Assembly: GCA_017964255.1 (NCBI GenBank)
Contig: JAGCSI010000019.1
Span: forward strand, 8,286 to 72,285
Length of the DNA: 64,000 nucleotides
DNA from: Bacteroidales bacterium
GTDB lineage: Bacteria > Bacteroidota > Bacteroidia > Bacteroidales > WCHB1-69
Direction: 5' to 3'
Numbering within the stretch: position 1 is the stretch's first letter; every line of letters starts with the position of its first letter. This document shows, one piece after another, positions 14,808-64,000 of the stretch. A program made the translations under genes and the position numbers. The notes under the pieces were generated by a model. The model did not search any database and had not been told where the DNA came from. It saw only the letters and a program-made list of their open reading frames with translations.

Positions 14808-14952
14808 ATCAGCCAAAACATATACTATAAACATAAATTTGGCTAAATAAGAATAATCAAGTCAGCCAAATTTTACAATAAAAACATATTTTTGGCTGAA
14901 TAAGTATATTTAATTCAGCCAAATCAAATATTTTTTATATATTTGCGGCTGA
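14808..14952. promoter_or_regulatory. Iteron-like 52-53 bp tandem repeat (about 2.5 copies) carrying TTTGGCTRA / TCAGCCAAA palindromes
   Basis: tcagccaaa at 14809, 14862 and 14915. tttggctaa/tttggctga at 14838 and 14891, and ttgcggctga at 14943. The last unit overlaps the -7 box at 14938-14945. Confidence 0.6.
14938..14945 (+). promoter_or_regulatory. Candidate -7 box (TATATTTG) for the ATPase gene
   Basis: Matches TAnnTTTG, 24 nt upstream of ATG 14969. Confidence 0.45.
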
Positions 14953-14968
14953 ATAAAATTATAGTGGT

Positions 14969-16411
14969 ATGAGGCGGAAAATTATCGGAAGAAAATATGA
15001 ACAGTCTGAATTACAACATCTTAAAGAAAGTGATTCACCAGAATTGGTTGCCGTATATGGCCGTCGTCGGGTTGGAAAAACATTTCTGATCAGAGAATTT
15101 TTCCAAAATCAGTTTGTATTTTACCATACTGGGGTGTCTCCTCTCGAAATCAAAGGGAATCAGTTGACCAAGCGTCAGTTGGAGGAATTTTATGTTTCAT
15201 TGCGTGAGTATGGTCTGAAGGACATAACTTGTCCGACAACTTGGCCAGAAGCGTTTAGAATGTTGAGACAACTTGTTGAGAAACAGAGAGGTGAGGGTAA
15301 AAAAGTCGTATTTTTAGATGAATTTCCATGGATGGATACACCACGGTCGGGTTTTATTACCGCTTTCGAGCACTTTTGGAACGGATGGGCTTCCTCTCGT
15401 TCTGATCTTTTATTGATTGTCTGCGGTTCAGCCACTTCATGGATGAAAGACACACTTCTGAATAACAAAGGCGGTCTATATGGACGGGTGACTTATCATT
15501 TGAAACTAACTCCTTTCTCCTTGCTTGAGTGTGAAGAGTTCTTGAAAGACAAAAGAGTTGAACTGGATCGTTACGACATTGTTCAGAGCTATATGGCGGT
15601 AGGGGGGATTCCGTATTACTTGAATTATTTCCGGTCTGGTTTTTCCCTTGCGCAGAATATTGACCGTATTTATTTTGCGAAAAACGCACCGTTGCGTGGT
15701 GAGTTCGAACGATTATTCGCCTCGCTTTTTGGAAATCCTGAGGACTCCAAGGCAATTGTGAAATTGTTAGCCTCTCGCCGATATGGTTTTAGCAGAAAAG
15801 AGATTGCAGATAAACTGAACATGACTTCTGGTGGAACGCTGACCAAAACACTATCAGCGCTAACCAATAGTGATTTTATCACCTCATACGTACCATTAGA
15901 TAAGCGAAAAGAGACCTATTACAAGTTGACGGACAATTTCTGCCTTTTCTATTTGAATTTTATTGAAAAGAAACGATCTAATGATGAGTCGTTTTGGCAA
16001 CATTCTGCATTGTCGCCAGCAATCACCTCATGGCAAGGGTTCGCTTTTGAGGAAGTCTGTTTTGCACATCCTCGTCAAATAAAAGCTGCACTTGGTATCG
16101 CTGGAATTCAGACGAATATATCGTCTCTCATTATCGCCAAAGATGAACACCAATCCGGGATGCAGATTGATATGCTCATTGACCGTGCTGACAGGGTAAT
16201 CAATCTCTGCGAAATCAAATATTGCAACCAGGAATTCGTCATTGACAAAATTTACGAGGAAAAACTCCGGTGTCGTGCCGAAAGAATCAGAGAATTGACC
16301 AAAAACAAGAGGAACATCCACCTCACTCTTATCACCACATTCGGTCTCCGCTACAACGAATACAGCGGACGCATCCAGCAAACCATCACCATGGATGATT
16401 TGTTTGCGTAG
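14969..16411 (+). CDS. AAA ATPase, archaeal-ATPase/DUF234 type
   Basis: 480 aa with Walker A GRRRVGKTF and Walker B VVFLDEFPWM. The C-terminal part resembles DUF234. Confidence 0.75.
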   Translation: MRRKIIGRKYEQSELQHLKESDSPELVAVYGRRRVGKTFLIREFFQNQFVFYHTGVSPLEIKGNQLTKRQLEEFYVSLREYGLKDITCPTTWPEAFRMLRQLVEKQRGEGKKVVFLDEFPWMDTPRSGFITAFEHFWNGWASSRSDLLLIVCGSATSWMKDTLLNNKGGLYGRVTYHLKLTPFSLLECEEFLKDKRVELDRYDIVQSYMAVGGIPYYLNYFRSGFSLAQNIDRIYFAKNAPLRGEFERLFASLFGNPEDSKAIVKLLASRRYGFSRKEIADKLNMTSGGTLTKTLSALTNSDFITSYVPLDKRKETYYKLTDNFCLFYLNFIEKKRSNDESFWQHSALSPAITSWQGFAFEEVCFAHPRQIKAALGIAGIQTNISSLIIAKDEHQSGMQIDMLIDRADRVINLCEIKYCNQEFVIDKIYEEKLRCRAERIRELTKNKRNIHLTLITTFGLRYNEYSGRIQQTITMDDLFA

Positions 16412-16462
16412 AAGCGTATAATCTTTTGCTGTGGAGATATGCTACGTGAGGCATTTCGCACG

Positions 16463-16824
16463 CTTTTACCAATTCACCGTCACATCACCTTCAATCTTGC
16501 TGGTGTTGATGTTCACGACTTGGAGTTAGAGGTGAATTAATCAGTTCTGTATCCTCGTTGTAGGCTATTATGACATGCCGGAGGCATGAGACGCGCCGTT
16601 AGGCGCAATTAACACCATACAAGCGGCATAGCCGCGCAGTGTGGTGAGAGCCGGGAATGTGTGTATAGTGCATATCGGAGATATGCGACATTATACCACC
16701 GTCTTGCATAGACTGTCGCATCTCTCCAAGATGCCTGTATAGCGGAGTACCTCATCCACCACACTGCGCCTGACGGCTTGTATGGTGTTAATTGCACTGC
16801 GTGCGTAGCATCTCTCCCGAGATG
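16463..16824. repeat. R2 structured repeat, copy B
   Basis: See copy A. It is followed at 16855-16902 by a third copy of the 50-bp gene-end segment. Confidence 0.85.
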
Positions 16825-16836
16825 ATGATTTATTGC

Positions 16837-17013
16837 TCAATCTCTTTGCCATCCCATCGTCACATCACCCTCAATCTCGCCGGTGCTGATGTTTACGACT
16901 TGGATTTGGTCTGTGATGGCCGCCTTCTGCTGGAGGTAGACCTTCTCAGCAAGCCTTGTTTGTGGATAAAGTGTGCGGCACGGGAAGCGATGTTTCGGGA
17001 ATAACAGGGGTCG
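16837..17013 (-). pseudogene. 3' remnant (58 codons, no start) of an unidentified gene
   Basis: The minus frame reads RPLLFPKHRFPCRTLYPQTRLAEKVYLQQKAAITDQIQVVNISTGEIEGDVTMGWQRD-stop with no upstream ATG. Its last ~16 codons are the segment copied in R2 A and B. Confidence 0.3.
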
Positions 17014-22634: not shown

Positions 22635-25600
22635 TTAAAAGACGGTGACAGTCCCTTTTTTCTTGTTTTCATTTCCTGTTCCGTCGGTGTAAAAGATCAC
22701 GTAGTTGTAGATGCTGTATTTTGTCATTTTTCCGTTATAAGAGCCATCCCATTTGAAATGGGAGTCATTGGACTGGAATACAAGTTCTCCCCATCTTGAA
22801 TAGATTACAATCTCCTGGAATTGGATTTCTCCACTGAAATAGATGGAGAAATAATCGTTGATGCCGTCTTTATTGCTGGGAGTGAATGAATTGGGTACAT
22901 AGAAGGTGCCTTCACCGCCATTTACACGTGGTATGTGTACTTCCTGAAGGGTGGAGCAGGCTTCATCGGTAATCAAAATCCAGTAATCACCAGCGTCAAG
23001 TCCATAGACAATCAGTTGATTGGTGTATTCGTCCAAACGTATGGTTAGATATGGATCTGCGAACCATTCAATGGTATAGTTCCCGTAAAAATGGTTCACT
23101 TGCAGGGTAACCGCTCCGTCATGCATGTTGAGCATGGCTTCGATATTGGTGATTTCGATTTCCGGAGGAGTGATATTGTCCACGGTGATATCGTATAGGG
23201 TCTGGCTACAGCCCATTTGGTCGGTTGCGGTGACATGATAGTTGCCTGCAGAAAGGTTGTAAATCTGGTTTTCGTTGGTATTGTAGCCATTGGACCATAG
23301 TAGTGTTACAGGGGGAAAGTCGGTTTGTACGTCTATGCCGATACTGCCATTGCGTCCTTCGCAGGTCTCATCATGAATGTTGTTGATTGAAATACCAGGT
23401 AATTCGCTGGTCTCTACCAATATGCTGTCCTGTACTTCGCAGAATTGGTTGCTGGAAGTCAGAATGTAGTGACTCGATTGTGGTGGTGTCGCTGTGATTA
23501 CAGCACTGTCTGTGGCAGAAATAATGCTTCCATCGGGATTCGAAGACCATTGATAGCTAAATGGATGGATGCTGCTTACGGCAAGATGTATGGTGTCGTT
23601 GGGACAGACTAACTGGGGCGACTGCAAAAGGATTTGAGGATACGGCAGCACCACAATAGTTGTAGTGGCATTCTTGGCGCATCCGGTCTGGCTGTTGTAA
23701 GCATGCAAGGAATAAACACTGGTGGTGGCAGGGTGTTCCACAATGTGGGTGCCCGTGCTGCCCGTGCTCCATGTGTACTGGTCTGCCGAGCCGTAATACC
23801 ACAGTGTGGTACTGTCACCTACGCAAATGGTATCTTTGGTAACCATTAAATTCAGATTGAAATCAGGCTTCACCTGAACTTCCGTGTGTTTGGTAGTGAC
23901 ACAGCCGTGCTCATCGATGGAGCTTACGGAGTAGGTCGTGTTTTCGGTGGGTGTAATGGTAAAGCTGCTGCTGGTCTCACCATTGCTCCACAAGTAATTC
24001 CAGGCTCCCGAAACGGTTAAAGTCAGGCTTTCTCCCAAACAGAGGGCAGTGTCGGGAGTGATTTGCATAGGAAGAGGTGGATATACATTAATATGTACAG
24101 TTACCGAGTCAATACAACCGTACTGGTTGACAATCCGTCCGACATAGTCGGTGGTTACCTCGGGCTGAACCAAAGTTCTATTGTTATCGTGATAAATGAT
24201 GCCGGTCATCGGTGACCAGGTCCAGTCGTTTTGTCCGCTGATGCTGATTTGGGCGGTGTCGCCTACACAAAGGGTTTGAGGGGGCACTCCGATTGAATAA
24301 TCCGGAATAGGATAAATGGCGATATCTATGCTGTCGCTGGCAGTACACAAAAATTCAGTATAAGCGGTAACTTTGTATTGTCCGTTAGTTAATTGGTTGA
24401 TAATCAAGCTGTCGCCCACATGGCCTGTGCTCCACTGGTAGGATGCGGCATTGCCAACCGCTTTCAAACGGATTTGTTCTCCAAGACACACCACGGTCTC
24501 ATCGGCCAGAATGGAAACCTGAGGCCGAGGCTTCACATCAACAAATCTTTCCGCTTGGAAATGACAACCGTACACATTGGTGAGAGTGGCCGTGTAAGTG
24601 GTCGGAACCAAAGGTGATACCTTGATGATGTCGGTGGTGTCAAGTGTGCTCCATAAGATGTTTGTGTAATTCTGGTTAGAGACATACAACACAATGCTGT
24701 CGTCTTTGCAGATGTATTCCTGGTAAGGAAGTATGTTGAAAACAGGATCAGGCATCCTTACTATCGGATATTCAGCGGTAGTAACACAATTGACACTAGT
24801 GTTTATGGCGGTCAGTGTGTAAACGGTGCTTTCGGTCGGATATACCGTGATGACCGAGTCTCTGCTTCCAGTACTCCATTCGTAGGTGTCGCCCGCTCCG
24901 TATGCCATGAGTGTGATGGCATTGTTTTCCAGACAGAAACTGTCGCGAGAGGCGATGATGTTGATATCAAACATGGGGAATACTATTACTTTCAGACTGT
25001 CAATGGTCTGACAGTGATACTGGTTGTACGAGGTGACGGTATAAACACTTGTTGTATCGGGAGTTACTGTCCTGAAATCGTTGGTGGAACCATCTTCCCA
25101 GATATAGGAAGATGCTCCTGATACCCTGAAGGAGAAATCGTTGCCTTGACAGATTTCCACTTCATGCGGCATGCTGAGTTCAGGTACGGGATAAACATTC
25201 ATGTGGAAGGACATGGAATCCACACATCCGTATTCATTGGTAAGACGGATCGTATAGGTCTGGCTTTCCGACAGCGTAATGGTGACGGAAGAGTCTGAGA
25301 TCTCTGACAATCCGACGTTAGGATACCAATCGCATTGGTTGAGGCCGCTGGTACGCACCGTTACAGGCACGTTGGCACAGGTACTTCTGGGACCGCGCAC
25401 ACTGTCTTGCGGCATGATGTCAATGACCTGGATATTCAGTGTGTCGGTGCCAATGCAATTGTTGGTGTCAATACCCATGACAATATACTGTTGCCCTTGT
25501 TCTGCCACATGGGTAATGGTTTGGCTATTGCCTAACATCTGGTTGTTGAGGAACCACATGTAGCGACGGGCTCCGGTGGCGGACAGCTCTGCTTCGCTGT

Positions 25601-28600
25601 GAAGACAGACAATTTCGGGCTCGACGGAAGCATGAATCACCGGAACAGGGAACACCTGGACGAACTCTGTGTCAATGGCACTGCAAACCACTCCGTCAAT
25701 GGCATAGTAACCCCTGATATAATAGGTCGTGTTGGTGTCGGGTGAGACAAAGGTAACCTGTCCATCGCTCACTATCGTATTGTCGGCAGGAACCGAACTC
25801 CATTGGTAGTTGGTGCTGAAAATATTACTTTGCACAGTGATACCCAAGAAGTTGGAACCATTATTACATAGGAATCCCGGATAGGATACATTCACATCCA
25901 ATTGCGGAAGAGGATAAACCATCACTTCTATTGGCAGGTCACTTTTACAACCAAATTCATCAGTACCTACAACCTGATAACGTGCGGAAGGCAGTTCTTC
26001 CGGCAGGGTTGGATAGGGATTACCAGTATAGATCAAACAGGTCTTATCATTGTTGAACCACTGATATTCAACAGCTCCTGACATGTCAATGATAAGGCTG
26101 TCACCTAAACACATGCTATGGGGGGCATTGGAATGGAGAACGGGAAGCTGATGTACGGTAATTTTAACAGAATCTACTGTTTTACAATGAGTTGTTGTAT
26201 CTGTAACCTGAACCGTATATAAACAGGTGGTTTGGGGTGATGCCAAAGGATTGGCAATATTGATGGCACTCAGAGAGAAAAAGTTGTCCCATGCGTATTG
26301 ATGACCATTACTGCTGATATTGAGTTGAACGGTATCTCCTCGGCAAATGGCGGAATCAGAGACGATGATGTTGACTTCAGGATGCTCATGCACGGTAACG
26401 GTGTAAACTTCAGTGTCGTAGCACCCGTGCGGATTCATGGCTTGTATGGTATAGTCGGTGGTTTGTGTGGGTGAGATTGTGATGACATTGACATTCCCTA
26501 TGCTGTTAGTTGTACCATCCTCGTACCAGCTGTAAGAAATGCCCCCGCTGGCCATTAAACTTAAAGAGTCTCCCAAACAAATATGCCCTCCTTCAGAAGT
26601 GGCTGCAATGTTGATATCGGGAAGAGCATGGATGATATATGGTATTTGCAAAGAAGTATTGCAACCGAACTCATTTAAGAAACCTGTAACGGTAAATATT
26701 TCCGTATGGTCTTGAACACTGCTTACAGGGTGAACGGTGGCGGAACCGTCACTGTTGCCTGAGAGAATGGCGTTGGGAACCCATTCGTAACTGTCCGCAC
26801 CCGTTACCATGATGAATCCCGTGTCGTTGGCACAGATGGGCGAACTGCTGTTTTGCACCGACAGGGTGGGGACTACCATGACGATGACATCCACTGTATC
26901 GCGGGTGTAGCAACTTACATTGTGGGCAGTATTCCCCACGAGTACACTGTATTGTTGTGACTGGTACAAATATGGTGTGACAATGGAATAGGTAGTGCTG
27001 CCATTGCTCCATACAATGCTCTCGAAGTCTCCTATCGCCGATATGGTGACATTGCCGCCTGCACAAACGGTGTCTGCAGACAGCCTCAGTTCAATGCTCG
27101 GCGAAGGGTTGATATTCAGGCTATAGCTAGTGCTGTTCCTGCAGCCGTGTTCATCGGTGCCTATAACCTGATAGTTTTGACTAAGAGGTGGCGTAATCTG
27201 CAGATGGTCTCCAACTTGTCCGTTGCTCCATACATAGTCTTGCGCACCGGAAGCTATCAGGGTATAGCTTTCGTTATCACAAAAATAATTGCTATTATGC
27301 TCACTGCGAATAGAGACAGTGGGCAGTGGATGGGTCTCCACTGTTTTGCTTATTTCCAAATAACAACCATATTCGGTGGTGGCTTTGACACGATAGGTGG
27401 TGTTTTGCAGCTGGGTGGTCCATACTGTGTCGTTGGATGACTGTTCTTGTGTGATAGGCTGATACCAATGGTATATGTAGTTGCCTGACAGGGTCATCAT
27501 GATGGTGTCGGTGACACAAAGGTCTGAAGGAGCGGTTATTTCCTCGCGTGGCATGGGATGTACCGTAATCAAAGCCTGCCCTTGCCGGTGACATCCATAT
27601 AGATTCACCAGATCAACAGTAAGGGTATCCGTATAAGAATATGGAATATCTTGCAAGGGATGATAGGTGAACTGCGGAGTCGAGGTCCCCAAGCCGGGAT
27701 AACTCCAATAATATTCCATATTGCTGAATGACGGATAGATGGTTACATTAACGGTCCCGTCATAGCACAAACTGGTATCAGTTAATTCAATGTCAAATAC
27801 GGGGGGTAATCCATTAACCACAATGTTATGACTTGCAGAACTCATACAGTTGAAGTCGGAATAGGCATTGACCTGATAAACAGTGCTGTTTTCGGGACTG
27901 ATTTGAATGCTGCGGTTCGTATCGCCAGTCGTCCACACAAAATGACGGGCATCGCCTTCCACTGTCAATACTGTGTTATCACCCACACAGAGGGTGTCCT
28001 GTTCGGACACAATGTTGATGATAGGATAAGGCATTACCACCACAGTGTCATAAATAAGCATTGAGCAGTTGGTAGAGGCATTCAATACAAACAAGGATAC
28101 CACAAGATTTGTTTCGCTGGTGGTACTGTCCGAGGTCATTGTGATGGAATTACTATTGAACAACGGATTTTGATTCCATTCGAATGTACTTCCTCCGTAT
28201 GCTGTAAATGTCACTTCGCTATTGGGACAGATACTGTCGGCACTGGCGACAATATTCATGGGGAAATAGGGAATTACATTAACTGTCACCTCTCCATAGG
28301 AACCACAGCCTATATAATCATACACAAAAACATGATACGTAGTGGTGTCGACAGGCGCCACCACGATGCTGTCGGTAGTGCTGTGGTCGGGGTCGTCCCA
28401 AAGGAAAAACAGACCACCGGAAGCCTGTAATACCGTACTGTCGTTTCGACAAATGGTAATATCTGGGGAAAGTGTTGGCGTAGGAAATTCAAATACCGCA
28501 ATGGTTACACGTGTGGTATCGGTGCAGCCATATTCATTCTCGTAGCTCACCGTATATACGGTTGTTGTGGAAGGTGTTACTATGGCCGTGTCTCCCGACA

Positions 28601-31600
28601 CAGAAACTTCAACATCTGGATTGTGCCATTGGTAATTCAAAGCACGTCCGGAAAGCACCAGCGTTTTGGAACTATTGGCGCAGATACTGTCATTGCTCAA
28701 TATCTCGTGTTCTGGCGAGGGAAGGATGGTAAGAGGCACACTTCTTTTAGCAGAGCACCCGTTTCCATCAATTCCGGTAACGAAATATTCCATAGCTGTT
28801 TGTGGCTCTACAATTCTGATATTAGTAGTGGTGCTGTCATCCCATAGCCAACTTACAATTGTGGCGCCTGAAGCATGGAGTGTACTGCTGGAACGGGGAC
28901 AAATGACACCGGGCTCTGCCGTGATTTCTATTTCGGGCTGGGGATATAAATGAACGGGGAAATACAGAATGGTGTCGCAACCGTTAGGATGAATCACCCT
29001 CAGTTGATAGGTGCAGGAACTGTCTGGGATAATGCTGAACATGGCTTCCCTACCAATGATGTTGTCAGTCCCAACCTCTTGCCATTCAAAGCTATAGTTT
29101 GTCTCCTCGTCAATCATGTTTACCTTGAAAAAGGCTGTGTCCTGCTCACAAATGTAGGAAGTGCTATAAATATCCGAAATTTTGGGCTTCGGAAGCACAC
29201 TGACATGGATAAAAGCGTTTGTACGATTGCGGCAACCATTGCTGTCCGTACCCAAAACTCGGTAATCAGCATCTTGTAAAGGTTGTACCCAAAGCGAGTC
29301 AGCGGCCCCGTCTTGTAGGGTAGTATATTCAAAATCAATTAAATGGTCGGTCTGAATAATTGTTACTTTGAATCGTTTGGAGAAGCCGGAATAAGATTCG
29401 GGACATCGAAAGCCAGGGTCATGAAGTTCGTCCACATAGAAAGTGTCGATTCTGTTTAAATTCGGCTGCGTTTGCTGTACTAAAACGATGCCGTTTTCAG
29501 AATTGATATTGCGTATCGTGGAGCATATTTCAGAACCGTTTATACCCTGAATCACGCGGGTATAGGTGCTGTCCCATCGAAGTGTGTCTATTTTTTGCCA
29601 TATATAATGGTCAAGTCCTGATGCCCGCATTAAAAGACTGTCACCGTAACATAGCGTGTATTCACTTACATAGTTCAGGTCAGCCATAGGATTGATAGAT
29701 ATTTTCAGGGTGTCGTAGCTGACACACCCATTGTCATCGGTACCTCGTAAGTAAACCCTGTCATTTCTAGTCGGCGTGAAAATGGTAATTTCATCCTGAT
29801 GAGTAATGGGGGAAGAAAGGGTGTCATGGAGGGCTGTCCAATTGTAGGTAAGGTTGTTGTGTGCCGTCAAATCCAAAGGTTCTCCCTCGCATGTGATTAG
29901 CCAGGAGGTGTCCATGTCGTTTACCCACAGTGTCACGTCGGGCAGTGTGTCCACATGGAAATGAATAATGGCGCGGGTTACAGAATGCCCCTCGGTATAA
30001 GCGGTGAGCATGAGAAAACCGTCCTCGGTAATGGGACCGGTGGTGTAACAACCGGAACTGTATTCCCCGGGAATGCTCATTATATATGTGTTGGTATCGT
30101 TGACAATGTAAGAGCTGTCTAACTCTATGTTGGGGATGTGCAGGATGTATGGAGATTGCCATACCAACCTCTTTTGAACGGGTTGTATGTCTGCGTTGAT
30201 GGAAAAGTTATAACAGAAATAGAAAGAATCACCATAGCAAACCCTTTGATTGGTCTCGTGTATAATGATGTTGGTATTGGTGCCGGGTTCAGCGCAACCG
30301 CATGCATTGGTGGAGTCAATATAGGCTCCACTGGGGATATACACCGAATCGGTCATCACAATAAAATCCTGAACACTGTCCCCTAATGTTACAAAATAGG
30401 AATAGCAGAATACGTTACTGTACACCACATCCAAGCTGGTTGACGAATCAGTGGCGTTTTCATTGGTGCAATTCGAATAGACGGAAATGGTATAGAAATA
30501 ACACTCGTTGGGATTCAATCCGTTGATAATTTGAAAAGTGTCGATAGTACTTCCCGAAAAGATTGGCGTACTGTCTGATGCCGTGTATATATCATAATTG
30601 TAAGTCAGATCATTGCCTTCTCCGGGAATCCAGTTGATGAACGCAGTGGTGTCACTGTTCATGTATCCGTAAAGGTTTAATGGCAAACCGGGAGTTTGAC
30701 AGCACTTGGCCTGCAACTCAAAACCACCGGAGGTACAGGTCGAGTCGGATTGCATACGCAAGGTAATGGGTTGGCCAGGGGTCGCTGACATAAATTCAGG
30801 CTCGTCTTCATTGCCTAATTGGTGCGAGCCTGGACCCGTGATGGTGTCGTATGGAACCAGGGTGGAGTCGAGGGTGATGTCGCCATTGTATATGAACAGC
30901 GTATCCCCGCATTCCATCAAGCTGTTACCCCATATTTTCAGTTTTGAACGAAGGTCACCAGGATACAGTACTAAATATCCGTTTTCGTTGTTCGAGTAGT
31001 CACCGCTGGCATCGTCTTGCTGTGAGTTTGTACCGGAGTCGTATATGAAATGGTTGTCGTCGTTACATACCAGATTTCGAACAACACCATATCGGCCCCA
31101 TACAATGTACGCATCGTCATCAGCTCTTCGCCTTTGATTGAATCTTAACAGAATGGTGTCGGGCGTGCAGGCACAAAAGTCCTCGCTGTTCAGGTATCGG
31201 TCGCCACGGTTGACCATAATACCTACCACACCCGTGTAATTGGCTCTCCATGAAAGTCCTGCTGCCGCATTGCCGGGTACGGTAGAGTTGACCGCACGGT
31301 CTGAAACAACGGCAGAGGTCTGGAAATCATCGTAAAAAAGGGTGATTTTAGTACGAAGTTGGTCGTTGCCGTGAGTGGGTACGTTGCCATAGCTGATATC
31401 GGTATTCCATTCATAGATGCCGTTGGCCTCCACATAGAATCGGTATATCATGCCGCATTGGATGCGTAATGTGTCTCCCATGAAATAGGTGATGTGGGGT
31501 ATTCCATTCGTGTCATACTCAAGATAGGAGTCCCTGAAGAGCATGGAGTTAAAATGATGAATCCGCAAATCTCCCGCAGCAATTGTAGCGGAGTCAGGAG

Positions 31601-31724
31601 GTGGACAGGGCGTCGGGGTGCACGGATGAGGGGTGCATTGACCATACATTTTGTTGCTCAATGTGAGCAGCAAAAAAAATGATGGTAATAAATAAACTAT
31701 AATAAAACGTATAAATTTTGCCAT
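22635..31724 (-). CDS. Giant (3029 aa) T9SS type-B-sorted surface protein with dozens of Cys-paired Ig-like repeats
   Basis: Signal peptide. C-terminus FYVPNSFTPSNKDGINDYF...YSRWGELVF...WDG matches the gliding-motility-associated / T9SS type B CTD. ~75-80-aa repeats of the form C.GDS..L.ASG...Y.W......I.V.P..TT.Y.V......GC...D.I.V.V.P.P run through most of the protein. Confidence 0.9.
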   Translation of the reverse strand: MAKFIRFIIVYLLPSFFLLLTLSNKMYGQCTPHPCTPTPCPPPDSATIAAGDLRIHHFNSMLFRDSYLEYDTNGIPHITYFMGDTLRIQCGMIYRFYVEANGIYEWNTDISYGNVPTHGNDQLRTKITLFYDDFQTSAVVSDRAVNSTVPGNAAAGLSWRANYTGVVGIMVNRGDRYLNSEDFCACTPDTILLRFNQRRRADDDAYIVWGRYGVVRNLVCNDDNHFIYDSGTNSQQDDASGDYSNNENGYLVLYPGDLRSKLKIWGNSLMECGDTLFIYNGDITLDSTLVPYDTITGPGSHQLGNEDEPEFMSATPGQPITLRMQSDSTCTSGGFELQAKCCQTPGLPLNLYGYMNSDTTAFINWIPGEGNDLTYNYDIYTASDSTPIFSGSTIDTFQIINGLNPNECYFYTISVYSNCTNENATDSSTSLDVVYSNVFCYSYFVTLGDSVQDFIVMTDSVYIPSGAYIDSTNACGCAEPGTNTNIIIHETNQRVCYGDSFYFCYNFSINADIQPVQKRLVWQSPYILHIPNIELDSSYIVNDTNTYIMSIPGEYSSGCYTTGPITEDGFLMLTAYTEGHSVTRAIIHFHVDTLPDVTLWVNDMDTSWLITCEGEPLDLTAHNNLTYNWTALHDTLSSPITHQDEITIFTPTRNDRVYLRGTDDNGCVSYDTLKISINPMADLNYVSEYTLCYGDSLLMRASGLDHYIWQKIDTLRWDSTYTRVIQGINGSEICSTIRNINSENGIVLVQQTQPNLNRIDTFYVDELHDPGFRCPESYSGFSKRFKVTIIQTDHLIDFEYTTLQDGAADSLWVQPLQDADYRVLGTDSNGCRNRTNAFIHVSVLPKPKISDIYSTSYICEQDTAFFKVNMIDEETNYSFEWQEVGTDNIIGREAMFSIIPDSSCTYQLRVIHPNGCDTILYFPVHLYPQPEIEITAEPGVICPRSSSTLHASGATIVSWLWDDSTTTNIRIVEPQTAMEYFVTGIDGNGCSAKRSVPLTILPSPEHEILSNDSICANSSKTLVLSGRALNYQWHNPDVEVSVSGDTAIVTPSTTTVYTVSYENEYGCTDTTRVTIAVFEFPTPTLSPDITICRNDSTVLQASGGLFFLWDDPDHSTTDSIVVAPVDTTTYHVFVYDYIGCGSYGEVTVNVIPYFPMNIVASADSICPNSEVTFTAYGGSTFEWNQNPLFNSNSITMTSDSTTSETNLVVSLFVLNASTNCSMLIYDTVVVMPYPIINIVSEQDTLCVGDNTVLTVEGDARHFVWTTGDTNRSIQISPENSTVYQVNAYSDFNCMSSASHNIVVNGLPPVFDIELTDTSLCYDGTVNVTIYPSFSNMEYYWSYPGLGTSTPQFTYHPLQDIPYSYTDTLTVDLVNLYGCHRQGQALITVHPMPREEITAPSDLCVTDTIMMTLSGNYIYHWYQPITQEQSSNDTVWTTQLQNTTYRVKATTEYGCYLEISKTVETHPLPTVSIRSEHNSNYFCDNESYTLIASGAQDYVWSNGQVGDHLQITPPLSQNYQVIGTDEHGCRNSTSYSLNINPSPSIELRLSADTVCAGGNVTISAIGDFESIVWSNGSTTYSIVTPYLYQSQQYSVLVGNTAHNVSCYTRDTVDVIVMVVPTLSVQNSSSPICANDTGFIMVTGADSYEWVPNAILSGNSDGSATVHPVSSVQDHTEIFTVTGFLNEFGCNTSLQIPYIIHALPDINIAATSEGGHICLGDSLSLMASGGISYSWYEDGTTNSIGNVNVITISPTQTTDYTIQAMNPHGCYDTEVYTVTVHEHPEVNIIVSDSAICRGDTVQLNISSNGHQYAWDNFFSLSAINIANPLASPQTTCLYTVQVTDTTTHCKTVDSVKITVHQLPVLHSNAPHSMCLGDSLIIDMSGAVEYQWFNNDKTCLIYTGNPYPTLPEELPSARYQVVGTDEFGCKSDLPIEVMVYPLPQLDVNVSYPGFLCNNGSNFLGITVQSNIFSTNYQWSSVPADNTIVSDGQVTFVSPDTNTTYYIRGYYAIDGVVCSAIDTEFVQVFPVPVIHASVEPEIVCLHSEAELSATGARRYMWFLNNQMLGNSQTITHVAEQGQQYIVMGIDTNNCIGTDTLNIQVIDIMPQDSVRGPRSTCANVPVTVRTSGLNQCDWYPNVGLSEISDSSVTITLSESQTYTIRLTNEYGCVDSMSFHMNVYPVPELSMPHEVEICQGNDFSFRVSGASSYIWEDGSTNDFRTVTPDTTSVYTVTSYNQYHCQTIDSLKVIVFPMFDINIIASRDSFCLENNAITLMAYGAGDTYEWSTGSRDSVITVYPTESTVYTLTAINTSVNCVTTAEYPIVRMPDPVFNILPYQEYICKDDSIVLYVSNQNYTNILWSTLDTTDIIKVSPLVPTTYTATLTNVYGCHFQAERFVDVKPRPQVSILADETVVCLGEQIRLKAVGNAASYQWSTGHVGDSLIINQLTNGQYKVTAYTEFLCTASDSIDIAIYPIPDYSIGVPPQTLCVGDTAQISISGQNDWTWSPMTGIIYHDNNRTLVQPEVTTDYVGRIVNQYGCIDSVTVHINVYPPLPMQITPDTALCLGESLTLTVSGAWNYLWSNGETSSSFTITPTENTTYSVSSIDEHGCVTTKHTEVQVKPDFNLNLMVTKDTICVGDSTTLWYYGSADQYTWSTGSTGTHIVEHPATTSVYSLHAYNSQTGCAKNATTTIVVLPYPQILLQSPQLVCPNDTIHLAVSSIHPFSYQWSSNPDGSIISATDSAVITATPPQSSHYILTSSNQFCEVQDSILVETSELPGISINNIHDETCEGRNGSIGIDVQTDFPPVTLLWSNGYNTNENQIYNLSAGNYHVTATDQMGCSQTLYDITVDNITPPEIEITNIEAMLNMHDGAVTLQVNHFYGNYTIEWFADPYLTIRLDEYTNQLIVYGLDAGDYWILITDEACSTLQEVHIPRVNGGEGTFYVPNSFTPSNKDGINDYFSIYFSGEIQFQEIVIYSRWGELVFQSNDSHFKWDGSYNGKMTKYSIYNYVIFYTDGTGNENKKKGTVTVF

Positions 31725-58414: not shown

Positions 58415-58440
58415 ACTCCATTTGGTTTTGAATGATGCTG

Positions 58441-58462
58441 CAAAAATAACGCACAGGTGTGC
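58441..58462 (-). promoter_or_regulatory. Promoter-operator module copy 1 (TATTTTTG -7 box plus GCACA-N2-TGTGC palindrome)
   Basis: The minus strand reads ttgcacacctgtgcgttatttttgcag, 27 nt upstream of ATG 58414. Near-identical to 59538-59562. Confidence 0.5.
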
Positions 58463-58511
58463 AAGAATGTGGCATTGTACTGCCGTAATGTCTTTCGCAA
58501 CCGTTACGCCA

Positions 58512-59510
58512 TCATTCATAGAACATCACCGAAAACCGAAGCTCTTTACCAAGTCGATTGTCGGTGTTCACCATATAGCCGACCTGTCCTTTGGCCATCT
58601 TCGACACCCGACCTATCAGTCGGTGATCATCTTGGGTGAAAGGGTAATCGGGAGAAACGGTTATGACCATCATCAGGTTTTCAAAATGCTTTCCCACAAA
58701 AGCATTGTATTTGTCTATCAAATCCAGCATCCAATGGGTGCGCTGTGAGGTATCGCCTGCGTAGGATTGATAAGAATATTTGCTGCCGTGTTGCGACAGG
58801 AAGAGTTGTTCTATTGCTTCCGGAGTCATGCCGTAATTCTCTGAGGCTGGGGTCAGACAATGCTCCGCAAATTCACCTACAATACCGATACGCCGATCAT
58901 ATTCTTGTTGAATAGCCTCACGACTGTACCATCTTTTCTTACGCAAATGACCATGGTGTTCCGTTGGCTCCGACTGTATTCGTTCCATAGATTCTTTCAC
59001 GTCTTTTCGGAAAGAGGGAATGGTCAACAACGCTTTTTTTGAGGGAATATGGATGCCCTGTTGAATCAATTTGGACATCACCCGTTTTGTGCGTATCCTT
59101 TGGAGATCCTTGTCGTTCAGATTTCGTGCGTATCCATAGAGCTGCTCGGCGGTTTTGCTCCGCTGCTCTTTTGTGTAGCCGTATAAGGAGCTGTGCCACA
59201 AACAGCAGGTGGCGATTTCCTCAGGAGTTGCCTTGATTTCGGGTTCCACGACAATCTCTCTGGACAAACTTGCTTCCCATAAATCACCCTCCAAAGGAAA
59301 AGCCTGGAGTGCAGCAAAACCTCCCGATTTGTTTTTTGACACCACGATGTTTGGGTGGTCGGAGTCCTCTTTTCGGGGGGCAAGAAGTCGAAGCATGTCA
59401 TAATGCGTTTTGCACCACGGGAGGTCATCAGTGGGAAAGCTGAAATAAAAAGGGATATAGGGTAGGAGCTCGTCAAAAGTGACTTGGTGTAATAATTCGC
59501 TGTAAGTCAT
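58512..59510 (-). CDS. Hypothetical protein (332 aa), first gene of the operon
   Basis: Long ORF with its own promoter module. No motif recognised. Confidence 0.6.
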   Translation of the reverse strand: MTYSELLHQVTFDELLPYIPFYFSFPTDDLPWCKTHYDMLRLLAPRKEDSDHPNIVVSKNKSGGFAALQAFPLEGDLWEASLSREIVVEPEIKATPEEIATCCLWHSSLYGYTKEQRSKTAEQLYGYARNLNDKDLQRIRTKRVMSKLIQQGIHIPSKKALLTIPSFRKDVKESMERIQSEPTEHHGHLRKKRWYSREAIQQEYDRRIGIVGEFAEHCLTPASENYGMTPEAIEQLFLSQHGSKYSYQSYAGDTSQRTHWMLDLIDKYNAFVGKHFENLMMVITVSPDYPFTQDDHRLIGRVSKMAKGQVGYMVNTDNRLGKELRFSVMFYE

Positions 59511-59537
59511 AAGGCCGTTTTGTTTGGATTACAGCGG

Positions 59538-59562
59538 CAAAAATAGCGCACAGGTGTGCAAA
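59538..59562 (-). promoter_or_regulatory. Promoter-operator module copy 2
   Basis: The minus strand reads tttgcacacctgtgcgctatttttgcc, 28 nt upstream of ATG 59510. Confidence 0.5.
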
Positions 59563-59604
59563 AATGTGGCATTGTAGGGTGCAGCATTGTAAGGCTGTCG
59601 CAAT

Positions 59605-59633
59605 GTAGGGCTGTCTCAATGCGGCAGCCCTAC
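59605..59633 (-). terminator. Stem-loop downstream of the PLD nuclease gene
   Basis: gtagggctg ... cagccctac is a 9-bp stem, 10 nt after the stop. Confidence 0.5.
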
Positions 59634-59642
59634 AGTTGTGGA

Positions 59643-60158
59643 TTAAACAATCGGATCTGGGCACACGTCTCTCCGTTGGCACTTCTCGCACTCGCTGCCG
59701 CGCCACACTTTGTCGAACTCCTCGATGGCGGCAGCCACGATGGCGGGTTCATCGGAAAGGATTCCCGCCTCGAAGTTGCGGCGGTGGGGCGATTTCATCC
59801 CCATTCCCGCACCCGTGAGGTTAGCGCTGCCCACATAGCAGACCGTTTGGTCGATGACGATGATCTTGAAGTGTACCCGCGGACACATCACCCGTTCCAG
59901 CATCTTGGCCAATCGCGGGTAGCGGTCGAAGTCGGCACGGAAGATCGGCCCCGGCTCCTTCGCGTGGATCAGCCGCACCTCCACGCCCTTCCCCAGCAGT
60001 TCCGCCAGCACCCCGAGAAACGGCTTCTCGATTTTCCCTTGCAACACATACAGGTCTTTGATGTCGGCGGTACCAATCCACAACGAGTGCTTGGCCTTCA
60101 TCGCGAGGTCAAGGACGGTGGTGTAGTGGGAGGAGTCGGTGATGAGGGTGGTGGGCAT
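59643..60158 (-). CDS. Single-HKD phospholipase D superfamily nuclease (Nuc/BfiI-like)
   Basis: 171 aa with VHFKIIVIDQTVCYVGSANLTGAG (HxK..D..GSxN). Confidence 0.8.
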   Translation of the reverse strand: MPTTLITDSSHYTTVLDLAMKAKHSLWIGTADIKDLYVLQGKIEKPFLGVLAELLGKGVEVRLIHAKEPGPIFRADFDRYPRLAKMLERVMCPRVHFKIIVIDQTVCYVGSANLTGAGMGMKSPHRRNFEAGILSDEPAIVAAAIEEFDKVWRGSECEKCQRRDVCPDPIV

Positions 60159-60242
60159 TATAAATCGGTTATTATCAGTTGATTAATGCGTTTTGTTTCG
60201 CAGGAATGGTATATTGACAATTGTGCGAAACAGAAATATGAA

Positions 60243-61490
60243 TTACTGAATCCTGTCGCACCAATAGCAAGGCATCATGCGAATGGGTGGTTCATCGGAA
60301 AAATAGTTGAGATTAGCCACATAGCAATGGATGTCGGCATTGTCAAAGGCAGCGGCGAGGTTGGCTACAGCTGGTATTTTCAGTTTTTTTGTATTGCTTT
60401 GGAACTTACATTCGACCAATACTTTACGAGAAGGGCCATCCATCACAAAATCCACTTCGGTACCGTTCAGCGTGCGATAGAACTGTAGTGTTTCGCCTGC
60501 ATTCCGCTTGCGCCAAAGTTCAAGCATCACTTCGTTCTCAAAAATCGCTCCTTTGTCGGCCCGGAAATCCACCTCGTTGAAACTGTTATATACCATATTG
60601 CGTAGTCCGAGGTCATAGAAATAGACTTTCTTCATCTGTGAGATGGTCTTCCTTTTATTTACAGACATCGGTTCAATCATCCGGATAATATACATTTGCT
60701 GCAAAAGGTGGATATAGTTTTCGCATACGGCATATTTCAATCCACACTCTCTGCTCAGTTCGTTGATATTTACCAAATTGCCGATTTGCGCTGCCAAAAG
60801 TCTGATTAAGCGTGTAAAGCCAACAAAATGCTCGTTCCGAATGTATTTGCGCACATCATTGAGGAGATAGGTTTGGTATATATCGTTGATGAGTGCTATT
60901 TTGTCGGTGTTTTTGTCGGCCAAGGCCACACGCGGCAGTCCTCCAAAAATCAAATATTCGCGATAGGTATTCAGCAGTGGGGTCATCAAAGTCTCGTCCG
61001 CGACAGTGGCGTTTTGTTGCAAATGCCAAAGCTTTGGGTCCTTAAAGAGCAGATATTCGGCGAACGAGAGAGAAAGCACCTCGATGACGCGCACTCGTCC
61101 CGCCATTGTTTCCTCCACGCGCTGAAGTATGTCAAGACTGGAACTTCCCGTGCATAAAATCCGCAGGTTTTCATGCTTGTCGCACAGCAGTTTGAGCAGG
61201 GTGGAGATGTTTTCCACATACTGGAATTCATCGATGAGAAGCAAGCCGTCAAAGTTGGGGTTGAGCCAGATGCGCAGATATTCCTCCACGGTGCTCAGTT
61301 TGTCGAAAAGGGCAGCCACTTCTGGATCCTGCCCGAACAAATGCAGTGTAGGTACTTGGGCTTTTTCCGCGAAACTGTTCATAATGGTGGTTTTGCCCAC
61401 TTGTCGCGCGCCGATGAGCACCACGATAGGCACATAGCGAAAAGCATCGTGAATGCTTTGCTGATATTGGTTCCTTTCAATGATTGCCAT
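60243..61490 (-). CDS. AAA ATPase, AAA_14 plus DUF4143 type
   Basis: 415 aa from MAIIERNQYQ (ATG 61490) with Walker A GARQVGKTT and Walker B LLLIDEFQY. The C-terminal half resembles DUF4143. Confidence 0.75.
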   Translation of the reverse strand: MAIIERNQYQQSIHDAFRYVPIVVLIGARQVGKTTIMNSFAEKAQVPTLHLFGQDPEVAALFDKLSTVEEYLRIWLNPNFDGLLLIDEFQYVENISTLLKLLCDKHENLRILCTGSSSLDILQRVEETMAGRVRVIEVLSLSFAEYLLFKDPKLWHLQQNATVADETLMTPLLNTYREYLIFGGLPRVALADKNTDKIALINDIYQTYLLNDVRKYIRNEHFVGFTRLIRLLAAQIGNLVNINELSRECGLKYAVCENYIHLLQQMYIIRMIEPMSVNKRKTISQMKKVYFYDLGLRNMVYNSFNEVDFRADKGAIFENEVMLELWRKRNAGETLQFYRTLNGTEVDFVMDGPSRKVLVECKFQSNTKKLKIPAVANLAAAFDNADIHCYVANLNYFSDEPPIRMMPCYWCDRIQ

Positions 61491-61504
61491 ATTGAAATTT
61501 TTGG

Positions 61505-61530
61505 CAAATATACGGAATTTTTCAAATATA
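61505..61530 (-). promoter_or_regulatory. Two candidate -7 boxes (TATATTTG twice) for the DUF4143 ATPase gene
   Basis: caaatata at 61505-61512 and 61523-61530 on the plus strand. Confidence 0.4.
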
Positions 61531-61551
61531 CATAAATTTTCGTATGAATTT

Positions 61552-61659
61552 TTATGTGATAGTGTCGACGGCGCCAATCCACAGCGACCGCTTGGCCTTC
61601 ATCGCGAGGTCAAGCACGGTGGTGTAGTGGGAGGAGTCGGTGATGAGGGTGGTGGGCAT
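61552..61659 (-). pseudogene. Displaced 5' fragment of the PLD nuclease gene (35 codons then stop)
   Basis: Encodes MPTTLITDSSHYTTVLDLAMKAKRSLWIGAVDTIT-stop. Positions 61564-61659 match 60063-60158 with 7 mismatches in 96 by my count. Confidence 0.7.
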
Positions 61660-61689: not shown

Positions 61690-62076
61690 TTATTTAGCAA
61701 GTAATTCAACAATATCGTTATAAATAGAATTAGGTGACTCATGGGAAATTAATCTCCTATCTGTTTCTTTTAAGATATTTATCTCATCTTTACAATCTTT
61801 GACAACAATTGCAACAATACGATTTAGTTTCTCAGAATCAGGACTGTAGCCCCTTGATATCATTTGCATGACACATTGGTGATATAAATTAACCAAAGAT
61901 TTCCCGTATGCGAATCCACTTAAAACAATAAAGACAGGAACATCGTATTCGCGATATTCTCGTCCATTGTGGACATACATATTATCATTATCCTCTGAAA
62001 AAAGGAATTGCATTTTAGTCATTGCTGATTTAGCGATGGCAATGTAAATATCTTCTTTTTCGATGTATATTCCCAT
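61690..62076 (-). CDS. Hypothetical protein (128 aa) between the GmrSD-like and PLD genes
   Basis: ORF starts 12 nt after the GmrSD-like stop. No motif recognised. AT-rich. Confidence 0.55.
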   Translation of the reverse strand: MGIYIEKEDIYIAIAKSAMTKMQFLFSEDNDNMYVHNGREYREYDVPVFIVLSGFAYGKSLVNLYHQCVMQMISRGYSPDSEKLNRIVAIVVKDCKDEINILKETDRRLISHESPNSIYNDIVELLAK

Positions 62077-62088: not shown

Positions 62089-64000
62089 TTATTCCAAATT
62101 GGTTTCAGGATTCAGTCCAAACATTTTCAAGAAACTTTTATAAATATTTACTGATCGAGTGATGATGGCTTTAGCATGAAATTTGACATATTCTTCATCA
62201 TCATTCTTTATATTCTTGTGCTTGGCATCCAATCGTTTCCAATACTCTAGATCGTTTTCGCAGATAAAAAAATCCTCATTGGTTTTATCAAAACGCTCTG
62301 CTGGCGATAAATTGTTGTTTTCGCTTCTATTGTCAGTTAATGACATAGCACGGAAATTTCCGATGCGGTTTTCCCATGTTCTGGTGCGTGGGTCAATATA
62401 CCATTGGCCATACACCCAACTATTGGGATAGATATGGTCCCAATCCCATGGTGTGTTTGTGTCTTCAAGGTCGTCCAATTGGTTAAAATCTTCAAATGTA
62501 CGATTGATATAGTCTCTTTGAGCCAATAATATTAAGGATTTGTCTCTAGAGCCTAATAATTTCCACAAAAAGTTTCTCCACGCTCCTAAGATTCTATCTT
62601 GATATTGCTCATCTGTAAGATTCTCTGATCGTGGAAGTGACAACTCCCAAATTTGCCAAATATCGCTACAATCAGGCATGTTGGGACTGATGTCGTGGTT
62701 TTCTTCAGAACTTTTGAGACGTTCTTCCAAGAATGTCAATAATTGTTCCGGTTTTATCAGCGGATATTGTCTAATCCAATCTTTATTGTCGAAATACTTG
62801 TCACTCCAAAAGTCTGGTTCTAAAACCTTATTCCAATTTTCTCGTACATAATAGTCAAAATCGTTTCCAAACCAATGGTTCCTGTATAGACGTGAGGCAA
62901 TCTCCCTTTTCCTCGTTTCGTCAATCTGCACTCCTTCGTTTTCAAATAGCCAGTGCAACAGTAACAAGAAGCCATTAGGTGACTCTCGAATATATTTCTT
63001 CACAACCACATCCGGAACATTCCCATATTTAAGAATATTAATGGCACACTTGATTTTTTCCTTTATAGGGCTGGAAAGATTATCCCCTATTTTATCTTTT
63101 AATTTTTTTATGAATTCTTCATCTTGAACATGTTTTCTGAACTGAGCCAATGATAATCCCGAAACAAAACTGTTGCTGGAAAGTATTAAACGAGATGTGA
63201 GAGTAATTATTCGAGAAGGTGGAATAATGTTCATTCCAATGCAATCCACAAGATTCTTTACCTCAGGACATGTTGCTTTAAACATAGAATACATCAACTC
63301 TTCGCCTTCAATCTTGGTCCCCTGAGAATTGAGACGAACAAACAATGTTGATTCGTCAGGAGATGAATCTGTTTTGTCTATAAGCAATTCTTCAGGAAGA
63401 ACGATAGTAGGTATCATTGTTGGCAGCACCCTGCCTTCTATTGTCTCAAGAAGCGAAGAAAAAAACTCGGAGCCAACTAAAGATTCTAGCATCGTGAAAT
63501 AGTCTTCACTTTCTGTCATACTTGAAGTACGGAACGCTTCAGGAATGTTATCCTTGCATTTTTCGATTAACCATTTGATGTCGTGATTATATCTCACAGT
63601 TTCCAGCAAGAAGCATAGTGGTATGGGGCAAGTGGCATCGTAAGGGATTCGCTGTTTGGGCAGAAGTTTCGTATAATTCGTATAAAATGACTGTCCGAAC
63701 AGCTTTGCATATTGAGTTGATGCAGCCCGTCTATATGGAACCGATAATATATTTTCGTTGTGCTGAAGTTGATATCCCCAAGGGTGCGATCGAGTTACGA
63801 CGCGGAAAACAAATTCTTGTGTGTCGGTTTTCTTCCTCGGATTAACATCAATCCAAACAGTTGGAAGATTGTTGGCATTCCCGATATGATCCTTGTCTTT
63901 TACCCACGGATTATAAAAACCCAAAGCGATGGATGTAGCACGCTGTTGTCCGTCAAGCAGCATCAAGTTTTCACCTTCACGCGATAACAACATTGCGCCA
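62089..64000 (-). CDS. GmrSD-like type IV restriction enzyme (DUF262 plus DUF1524), 5' end beyond the window
   Basis: LLDGQQRATSI (DUF262 DGQQR) lies near the window edge with the frame open to base 64000. The C-terminal WDWDHIYPNSW ... NRIGNFRAMSLTDNRSENN is a His-Me/DUF1524-like motif. Confidence 0.8.
   Translation of the reverse strand, partial: GAMLLSREGENLMLLDGQQRATSIALGFYNPWVKDKDHIGNANNLPTVWIDVNPRKKTDTQEFVFRVVTRSHPWGYQLQHNENILSVPYRRAASTQYAKLFGQSFYTNYTKLLPKQRIPYDATCPIPLCFLLETVRYNHDIKWLIEKCKDNIPEAFRTSSMTESEDYFTMLESLVGSEFFSSLLETIEGRVLPTMIPTIVLPEELLIDKTDSSPDESTLFVRLNSQGTKIEGEELMYSMFKATCPEVKNLVDCIGMNIIPPSRIITLTSRLILSSNSFVSGLSLAQFRKHVQDEEFIKKLKDKIGDNLSSPIKEKIKCAINILKYGNVPDVVVKKYIRESPNGFLLLLHWLFENEGVQIDETRKREIASRLYRNHWFGNDFDYYVRENWNKVLEPDFWSDKYFDNKDWIRQYPLIKPEQLLTFLEERLKSSEENHDISPNMPDCSDIWQIWELSLPRSENLTDEQYQDRILGAWRNFLWKLLGSRDKSLILLAQRDYINRTFEDFNQLDDLEDTNTPWDWDHIYPNSWVYGQWYIDPRTRTWENRIGNFRAMSLTDNRSENNNLSPAERFDKTNEDFFICENDLEYWKRLDAKHKNIKNDDEEYVKFHAKAIITRSVNIYKSFLKMFGLNPETNLE

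Follow-up and report, generated by a model that had tools for sequence, protein, structure and literature searches.

We examined a 64,000-nucleotide (nt) stretch (the window) of contig JAGCSI010000019.1 from a Bacteroidales bacterium (assembly GCA_017964255.1), in which a gene for an ATPase with AAA_14 and DUF4143 domains lies between an intact gene for a PLD-family nuclease and a second, truncated copy of that gene's 5' end. We put at about 0.6 the probability that this truncated copy (the stub) is a gutted second PLD gene, and that the block carrying the ATPase has spread by ordinary homologous recombination with no need for a dedicated recombinase. A preliminary description of the locus had proposed a site-specific integrative cassette that inserted into the PLD gene and replaced the gene end it interrupted.

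An ATPase gene bracketed by two copies of a PLD gene end

The two copies form a direct repeat of 97 nt (60062-60158 and 61563-61659), found in a repeat search at a spacing of 1501 nt and 93% identical; all genes of the locus are on the minus strand, and coordinates are positions in the window. The copies differ at seven sites (PLD nt 45, 71, 72, 76, 87, 88 and 92), with only one mismatch in the 65 nt adjoining the ATG, in agreement with the seven mismatches in 96 counted in the preliminary description. Its other readings of the layout also hold: the upstream copy runs from its ATG at 61659 to a TAA after 35 codons (translation MPTTLITDSSHYTTVLDLAMKAKRSLWIGAVDTIT), and between the copies are only the ATPase gene, the TATATTTG boxes and a hairpin spacer (Table 1). 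The boxes fit the Bacteroidetes -7 motif, TAnnTTTG, and the region that contains them is partly kept upstream of ATPase orthologues at loci L126 and L136, and also at L016, where the ATPase open reading frame (ORF) is absent. The spacer hairpin, GTTTCGCA(N21)TGCGAAAC at 60195-60231, has an expected chance occurrence of 0.

Table 1. Features of the repeat-bracketed locus, given as positions in the 64-kb window.
Feature	Position	Strand	Remarks
Intact PLD-family nuclease gene, 171 aa, single HKD motif	59643..60158 (60158 to 59643)	-	Opens with the downstream repeat copy (97 nt, 60062-60158)
CCGCCGA motif, deletion hotspot	60064..60070	-	PLD nt 89-95; partial direct repeats at PLD nt 375 (CCGCCG), 413 and 428 (CCGCC) and 505 (CCGAT)
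ATPase-PLD spacer, 84 nt, with conserved hairpin	60159..60242	-	Hairpin arms within 60195-60231
AAA_14 and DUF4143 ATPase gene, 415 aa	60243..61490 (61490 to 60243)	-	Assigned with Pfam and PADLOC
ATPase promoter region	61491..61562	-	Two TATATTTG boxes, 61505-61512 and 61523-61530
PLD 5' stub (upstream repeat copy)	61552..61659	-	PLD nt 1-97 are 61659 to 61563, then an out-of-homology tail to the in-frame TAA
128-aa protein gene (p128)	61690-62076	-	Upstream of the stub
GmrSD_N-like protein gene	62089-63993	-	Runs off the window end; 688 aa in L001

Movement is indicated by the contrast between this block and its surroundings at other loci. The exact ATPase protein is present in at least six upstream and at least four downstream contexts, and in every one the PLD gene follows at the same spacing 3' of the ATPase, while on the 5' side the stub sequence GTCGACA is joined to CTATCACAT; since this junction is common to all contexts, it arose once. 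Over six contexts the mean pairwise identity is 99.8% in the ATPase ORF (0-6 differences in 1248 nt) and 99.2% in the ATPase-PLD spacer, but 90% in stub nt 1-57, 95% in PLD nt 1-65 and 92% in PLD nt 66-516 (16-45 differences in 451 nt). The near-identical block, at 99.2-99.8%, extends from stub nt ~66 through the promoter, the ATPase and the spacer. The PLD proteins of the same contexts are still 95-96% identical, so the flank differences are mostly synonymous and the flanks are old alleles, whereas the ATPase block arrived recently.

In every context the near-identical tract begins and ends inside the 97-nt repeat, which is what transfer of a molecule with just that portion of PLD would produce, for example a circle formed by recombination between the two repeats. 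Such boundaries would be unlikely with a linear donor, for which crossovers could fall at any point of the 516-nt gene. The left boundary is not fixed, and lies at nt 76-87 in L010 and at nt ~51-70 in the other loci. A signature of the upstream copy (PLD nt 71, 72, 76, 87, 88 and 92) is invariant in loci with this ATPase, except for L010, which has it at 87, 88 and 92 only; positions 9, 22 and 40 are common to both repeat copies in L006, and the stubs of L010/L054 and L012 are without their first 22-27 nt. Judged from the alignments, these mosaic positions are the expected product of homologous recombination together with gene conversion, and are unlike what a fixed-core recombinase would be predicted to leave. 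These loci thus show a near-identical insert, diverged flanks and exchange points inside shared homology, as spread by homologous recombination requires. In the secondary events the resident PLD gene is effectively split yet intact, with its second 5' end standing behind the ATPase. The proposal that the ATPase gene travels as a cassette is upheld in that the block (99.2-99.8%) is a discrete and recently spread unit within flanks of 90-92% identity, but the site-specific integrative logic that went with it is not.

The downstream PLD gene has a different significance from that first given to it. ATPase orthologues with 80-83% identity (L126, L137-L139) have a PLD gene 84-95 nt downstream, unrelated upstream genes and no PLD fragment, and L016, L126 and L127 retain the hairpin spacer, with compensatory changes in three of 14 pairs in a comparison of only four sequences. 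L016 has a promoter remnant and the spacer in front of its PLD gene, and no stub. The stub-free pairs and the conserved spacer indicate that the downstream PLD is a long-standing partner of the ATPase, and it is better understood as a gene belonging with the ATPase than as a 96-bp patch. The existence of the pair without a stub (L126, L137) tells against the view that the ATPase insertion brought a replacement gene end.

At L016 the promoter remnant directly adjoins the hairpin spacer (L016:5878-6000), and nothing remains of the ATPase ORF between its ATG and a point about 8 nt beyond the stop codon; this gap is either a very precise microhomology deletion (at AAT) or an empty frame.

Three simpler explanations of the repeat itself were discarded. 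Chance or an assembly artefact does not account for 97 nt at 93% identity in a layout that recurs in many independent assemblies from several studies. The stub is not a functional 35-aa peptide, since its start has been lost by 5' erosion in L010 and L012, which argues against selection for such a peptide; equivalent stubs elsewhere have decayed to 50-60% identity. Target-site duplication by a transposase-like staggered cut was rejected because the differences between copies are cassette-linked and the duplications range in length from 57 to 516 nt.

Decay of PLD genes in related loci

Scans with the PLD protein gave 41 genome and 67 metagenome loci, nearly all from rumen or gut Bacteroidales, and these include a graded series of upstream PLD copies. 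L015 has two complete genes, PLD(full)-ATP382-PLD(full), where ATP382 is a further DUF4143 ATPase subfamily. The upstream copy is reduced to nt 1-292 in L063/64, where a truncated ATP382 and PLD follow, to nt 1-274 in L019/L102 (PLD-ATP382-PLD), to nt 1-~105 in L127/L128/L140 (ATP415'-PLD-ATP382-PLD) and to nt 1-~95 in L136 (ATP415'-PLD-ATP427-PLD). L021 carries two stubs, of nt 1-57 and nt 27-93, ahead of a DUF234-type ATPase and PLD, and in L055/72, L092 and L074/76 a stub is followed by an unrelated gene of 233, 158 or 169 aa, respectively (no Pfam match), and then by a full PLD gene. Mirror-image cases with 3' relics are present in L070/71, L017/L067 and L014. A further comparison is given by L137 and L136, in which the upstream PLD is undeleted and deleted, respectively, with the qualification that the L137 contig stops inside PLD. 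The preliminary description had named recombination between two PLD paralogues as the finding that would tell against its model, and the two full copies of L015, the graded decay and the retained PLD tails described below come close to that, short of a pair of full copies around the window ATPase itself.

The partners (X) that precede PLD comprise four DUF4143/PDC-S01 subfamilies, the DUF234-type ATPase and small genes of 158-233 aa. Among PLD genes more than 90% identical the homology extends from start codon to stop codon, with about ten types of unrelated flank on each side; the PLD ORF is therefore the sole sequence shared between units, and constitutes a portable homology. In L021, L052 and L108 a 127-aa gene is directly followed by a PLD relic of its own, and in L111 a PLD relic directly follows a GmrSD homologue (74% identity). 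We infer that the window stub is the remnant of a PLD gene that once followed the 128-aa and GmrSD-like genes.

The right ends of the stubs are strongly clustered, with nine of 18 independent ends at PLD nt 86-105 (binomial P=1.5e-8), around the CCGCCGA motif. The observed deletion joins match the partial direct repeats of this motif further along the gene (Table 1): nt 94 is joined to 372 in L106/L108, nt 93 or 98 to 427 in L109-L114, and others are joined to 505-508. In L021 (ATTTTTTAA), L055 (ATAGAATAA) and L092 (GTTGCTTAA) the stub runs straight into PLD tail codons and the stop codon. L136 and L142 both carry CCGCCGA joined to TGGTAA together with about 40 nt of common 3' flank, beyond which one has ATP427 and the other an RNase_T gene. 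The retained tails show that the stubs of these relatives are internally deleted full PLD genes, and not insertion junctions or attachment sites; either both ends of the gene or a microhomology at the junction are present in L021, L055, L092, L106/108, L109-114 and L136/L142.

Short PLD relics of about 175-230 nt, in which the first ~94-98 nt are fused to the last ~90-145 nt, are found in L106, L108, L109-L112 and L114 (e.g. L108:2011-2193); these arose at CCGCC microhomologies and are seen repeatedly, in several contexts. Two further ideas about the stub ends were set aside. A restriction-type break at GGTACC (PLD nt 88-93) is an unlikely cause of the hotspot, because the junctions end elsewhere and many stubs carry a mutated site. 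An 8-nt match (ACACTATC) that suggested an inverted PLD tail at the junction in the window was judged to be due to chance.

The window ATPase (415 aa) matches Pfam DUF4143 (7.7e-33) and AAA_14 (7.4e-27), and over residues 5-387 it matches a PADLOC profile for PDC-S01 (PDLC04789, 1e-85), which places it as a predicted member of this candidate defence family. PDC-S01 is defined as a single-gene candidate whose defence activity, like that of most such candidates, awaits experiment (PMC12988326), and PDC-S01 ATPases are reported to be the commonest single defence-candidate locus in rumen genomes (PMC13356809, PMC12988326). The DUF4143 and DUF234 families have both been placed among PD-(D/E)XK nuclease-like families (PMC3424549). 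ATP382, ATP416 and ATP427 are further DUF4143 subfamilies with only ~22% identity to the window ATPase. The window PLD matches Pfam PLDc_2 (2e-15) and PLDc (8.6e-9), and its translation contains an HxKxxxxD motif, HFKIIVID, and GSANLT; PADLOC gave weak matches to DrmC/MkoB-like PLD proteins, and comparison with solved structures gave weak sequence matches only (PLD3, E~0.005). We assign it to the HKD superfamily as a Nuc-like, single-domain predicted nuclease.

In about ten loci (L026, L029, L031, L034, L035, L042, L043, L045, L050 and L051) PLD comes third in a conserved set of three genes, behind a KaiC/RecA-like ATPase of ~283 aa and a protein of unknown function of ~356 aa whose stop codon overlaps the PLD start. 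This trio is a candidate multi-gene system with the same predicted nuclease.

A proposed history and its alternatives

We propose that X-PLD units would first come to lie head to tail, giving the PLD-X-PLD arrangement that is seen in relatives and presumed at the window locus. The redundant upstream PLD would then lose its interior through a microhomology-mediated deletion starting from the GC-rich CCGCCGA motif, leaving a stub of ~95 nt; this step is seen in relatives and would have happened likewise here. Stub, ATPase and the PLD 5' end would then make up a gene bracketed by 97-nt repeats, and comparison of the loci shows that this block has recently entered PLD genes, in at least six neighbourhoods, by homologous recombination with exchanges inside the repeat. 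It may have travelled as a circle excised by recombination between the repeats, and the two repeat copies of one locus would also trade sequence by gene conversion.

Several observations weigh against this history. A PLD(full)-ATP415-PLD locus was not found for this ATPase among the loci compared, and the window stub is followed by CTATCACATAA, which is not recognisably a PLD tail. The junction expected of a circle or a tandem array (spacer-repeat-promoter) is absent among 144 loci, and a single crossover by a circle predicts one exchange point per locus, such that L006, L010 and L011 need additional gene conversion. The pairing with PLD is not obligatory, as a 77% ATPase homologue (L143) is without any PLD gene. 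Loci were fetched by exact match to the ATPase protein and are accordingly enriched for identical ATPases, although that leaves the divergence of the flanks unexplained; and all of the data are metagenome assemblies, in which repeats can cause chimeras, although the contexts recur in independent samples.

An alternative explanation for the stub is a one-sided insertion, in which an incoming ATPase-PLD segment pairs with a resident PLD gene and its left end is joined illegitimately at nt 97, creating the stub in one step prior to homologous spread. Illegitimate joins in homology-facilitated events favour GC-rich microhomologies near the anchor, and the clustering of stub ends near CCGCCGA fits this preference. 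The same explanation would dispense with the full-length upstream PLD that we do not find for this ATPase and with the tail that we do not recognise after the window stub, and in L016, in another context, the promoter region stops on the left at the same point (ATCA.ATAAAAATTC). It is less easily reconciled with the retention of PLD tail codons or 3' flanks in at least five related stubs, since a join made in one step would leave neither, or with the existence of full-full and long-stub intermediates for ATP382, and we consider it unlikely for the window locus.

A more far-reaching idea is that the first ~95 nt of PLD act as a recombinase-independent attachment site, and that single defence genes, each with one copy of this PLD segment, excise as circles through recombination between the repeats and re-enter any PLD gene, with the exchange perhaps stimulated by breaks made at CCGCCGAC by the PD-(D/E)XK ATPases or by PLD. 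If so, rumen Bacteroidales would possess a cassette system resembling integrons but driven by homology, in which different defence genes have a single nuclease effector in common. We regard this as unlikely.

It could also be argued that the stub-ATPase-PLD block never moved, that the neighbours on both sides were exchanged instead, and that the ATPase looks young because of the exact-match selection. The loci were indeed retrieved by ATPase protein identity, and it is clear that otherwise unrelated left and right contexts have been joined by recombination at the PLD ORF. Selection at the protein level nevertheless leaves unexplained a near absence of synonymous change in 1248 nt beside 8% divergence in 451 nt, as well as the presence of both tract boundaries inside the 97-nt repeat in every context; moreover, the outcome would be the same homologous exchange within PLD, viewed from the other side. 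We think a static block improbable.

Still less probable is a nuclease-stimulated, homing-like exchange, in which breaks near CCGCCGAC introduced by the PD-(D/E)XK domain of the ATPase, by PLD or by a resident restriction system would drive both the deletions and the gain of cassettes. The tight clustering of junctions (P~1e-8), the membership of DUF4143 and DUF234 in the PD-(D/E)XK superfamily, and identity tracts that are centred on the ATPase with diverged flanks, much like co-conversion at homing genes, are what such a process might produce, yet small non-nuclease genes fill the same frame, microhomology internal to PLD already accounts for the hotspot, and homing makes no flanking duplications.

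The site-specific integrative cassette of the preliminary description, taken here to have a defined PLD core, a replacement 5' end and a recombinase encoded elsewhere, would suit a block that is near-identical across many contexts, eight different genes behind stubs that end within ~20 nt of one PLD position, and a downstream copy whose first nucleotides are in all cases those of the PLD start codon or close to it. It nevertheless has very little to recommend it given that no recombinase is encoded from ~42 kb to the end of the window and for 8 kb beyond, that the identical block is bounded at variable points within the repeat and not at the stub end, that the stubs are 57-516 nt long with junctions sharing no core and only CCGCC/CCGA microhomologies to downstream PLD positions, and that PLD tails are kept after stubs and the ATPase-PLD pair is ancestral and exists without one.

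Genomic setting, comparison with known systems and other repeats

The locus is in a chromosomal defence island with the gene order GmrSD-like, 128 aa, stub, ATPase, PLD, 332 aa, YgjP-like, AAA_5, DUF2201, 370 aa and a convergent WYL regulator, beyond which are housekeeping genes (sigma factor, YceG, NlpC/P60). The earlier remark that no recombinase is nearby was borne out, in that no integrase or transposase was found in a Pfam scan of the ORFs from 41.9 to 64 kb or among the called genes in the 8 kb past the window end, a search that covered about 18 kb on one side of the locus; IstB and DDE genes turn up in just two unrelated contexts, L012 and L138. The ATPase block had no match in collections of plasmids, phages and viral contigs, and no tRNA or tmRNA targets were found. 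As a check for an empty site, L013 and L056 share the flanks of the island and have an intact PLD gene with the ATPase absent, yet their upstream genes differ. No exact empty site was found for the window's upstream genes; contigs with p128 either repeat the window layout or stop at the repeat, the short ones breaking there.

WYL-domain regulator and RNase_T-like exonuclease genes recur beside PLD in about 15 of the 41 genome loci (e.g. L025, L037-L040, L016 and L022) and look like a conserved frame around a variable defence island. The 332-aa gene (58512-59510) is missing between PLD and YgjP in L006, L009 and L013, and a 62-nt direct repeat with 84% identity (58418-58479 and 59515-59576) lies ahead of the YgjP-like and the 332-aa genes. 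The 332-aa gene is thus a further case of a gene that is present in some loci and absent from others and has copies of an upstream element on both sides, and this element includes a palindrome, TGTAGGGCTG...CAGCCCTACA, at 59604-59634. In L004 a direct repeat of ~290 nt (9761-10052 and 11312-11614; 98%, then 84% identical) brackets a RhuM-family gene on the opposite strand; what it duplicates is the 3' ends of PLD and of the WYL gene together with the intergenic region, and nothing is restored.

The closest precedent for the proposed history is Campbell-type insertion-duplication, or unequal recombination, in which a gene likewise becomes bracketed by direct repeats of host sequence with no dedicated recombinase; diverged repeats, varying exchange points and reversibility through recombination between the repeats are further points of likeness. 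It differs in that many partners here draw their homology from one small ORF for a defence nuclease, and in that no circle junction turned up among the 144 loci. Orphan toxin-immunity arrays of the Rhs/CdiA type resemble the locus in having a conserved segment as anchor, variable modules adjoining it and truncated copies left as scars, although as a mirror image, with 5' stubs upstream here and 3' tips downstream there; the variable parts here are also separate genes and not fused domains, and the conserved gene is the 171-aa PLD.

The resemblance to integrons is superficial. These similarly have units that are single-gene and mostly promoter-proximal, with a recurring element between them and a gene content that varies at one site. 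The window locus, however, lacks an integrase of the IntI type and any imperfect palindrome resembling attC, its units have promoters of their own, and the recurring element is a coding fragment of variable length (57-516 nt). The sole conserved structure 3' of the ATPase is the hairpin of 8-9 bp, which is specific to this spacer, and in the other cassettes 3-18 nt separate the cassette end from the ATG of PLD. Gene-restoring integrative elements, such as prophages and islands that target tRNA, tmRNA or other genes, similarly place a second copy of a gene end across the insert, but they carry an integrase and a fixed core; the locus has neither, and the whole downstream gene is the long-standing partner of the ATPase. 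With PDC-S01 there is a strong match to the model, the difference being that PDC-S01 is single-gene whereas several subfamilies are here operon-like partners of PLD.

The mechanism is ordinary; what sets the locus apart is the recurrent reuse of one nuclease ORF as both partner and recombination anchor for many defence genes, with a sharp deletion hotspot. The operon-like placement of several PDC-S01 subfamilies, a DUF234-type ATPase and small proteins before one HKD nuclease suggests an organisation of sensors with a shared effector. By this simple route defence genes can be reshuffled and spread between strains without mobile-element machinery, with a short conserved effector ORF giving the homology and recurrent microhomology deletions clearing redundant PLD copies. 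For annotation, genes of defence islands that are bracketed by repeats should not be called integrative elements where a recombinase and a fixed core are lacking, and PLD-like stubs can break metagenome assemblies and mislead gene callers.

A DUF234-type ATPase gene elsewhere in the window (14969-16411) had been thought to have an analogous layout. The repeat around it is real (14387-14758 and 16454-16824, 91-96% identical) and has a third partial copy at 16834-16903, but no gene end is duplicated. The analogy was discarded because the flanks are tandem repeat units of 380 nt whose copy number varies between assemblies, and the repeat, being a tandem unit and not a gene end, gives no support to the cassette logic. 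The units are at 14387-14758, 16454-16833 and 16834-16903 in the window, and two are found upstream in L122 (2549-3300). The full unit includes an inverted repeat of 20 nt without mismatches (GCAATTAACACCATACAAGC), and its predicted folding is far stronger than that of shuffled sequences (z = -7); it has no ORF and matches no Rfam family, and may be an unknown structured RNA or repeat element.

A copy of this ATPase with 88% protein identity is found behind PLD stubs in L021 and L103. Between the two unrelated sites the homology (81% at the nucleotide level) covers ~105 nt of upstream 53-nt repeats and the ORF as far as its stop codon, and by this comparison the gene is portable as promoter plus ORF. 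In the window, three tandem 53-nt units (14797-14955), each with an inverted repeat CAGCCAAA...TTTGGCTG, are directly 5' of the gene, and two accompany it to L021:4419-4523; they are likely to be a promoter or operator array.

Just upstream of the 380-nt array are an antitoxin-like small ORF and a YafQ-type toxin gene (13844-14366). A scan with Rfam gave no known structured RNA in the repeats, the sole family being a cobalamin riboswitch at 10.9 kb (10873-11050, 101 bits), upstream of an NrdD-like anaerobic ribonucleotide reductase gene (11081-13222). The window also contains a single ORF of 3029 aa on the minus strand (22635-31724).

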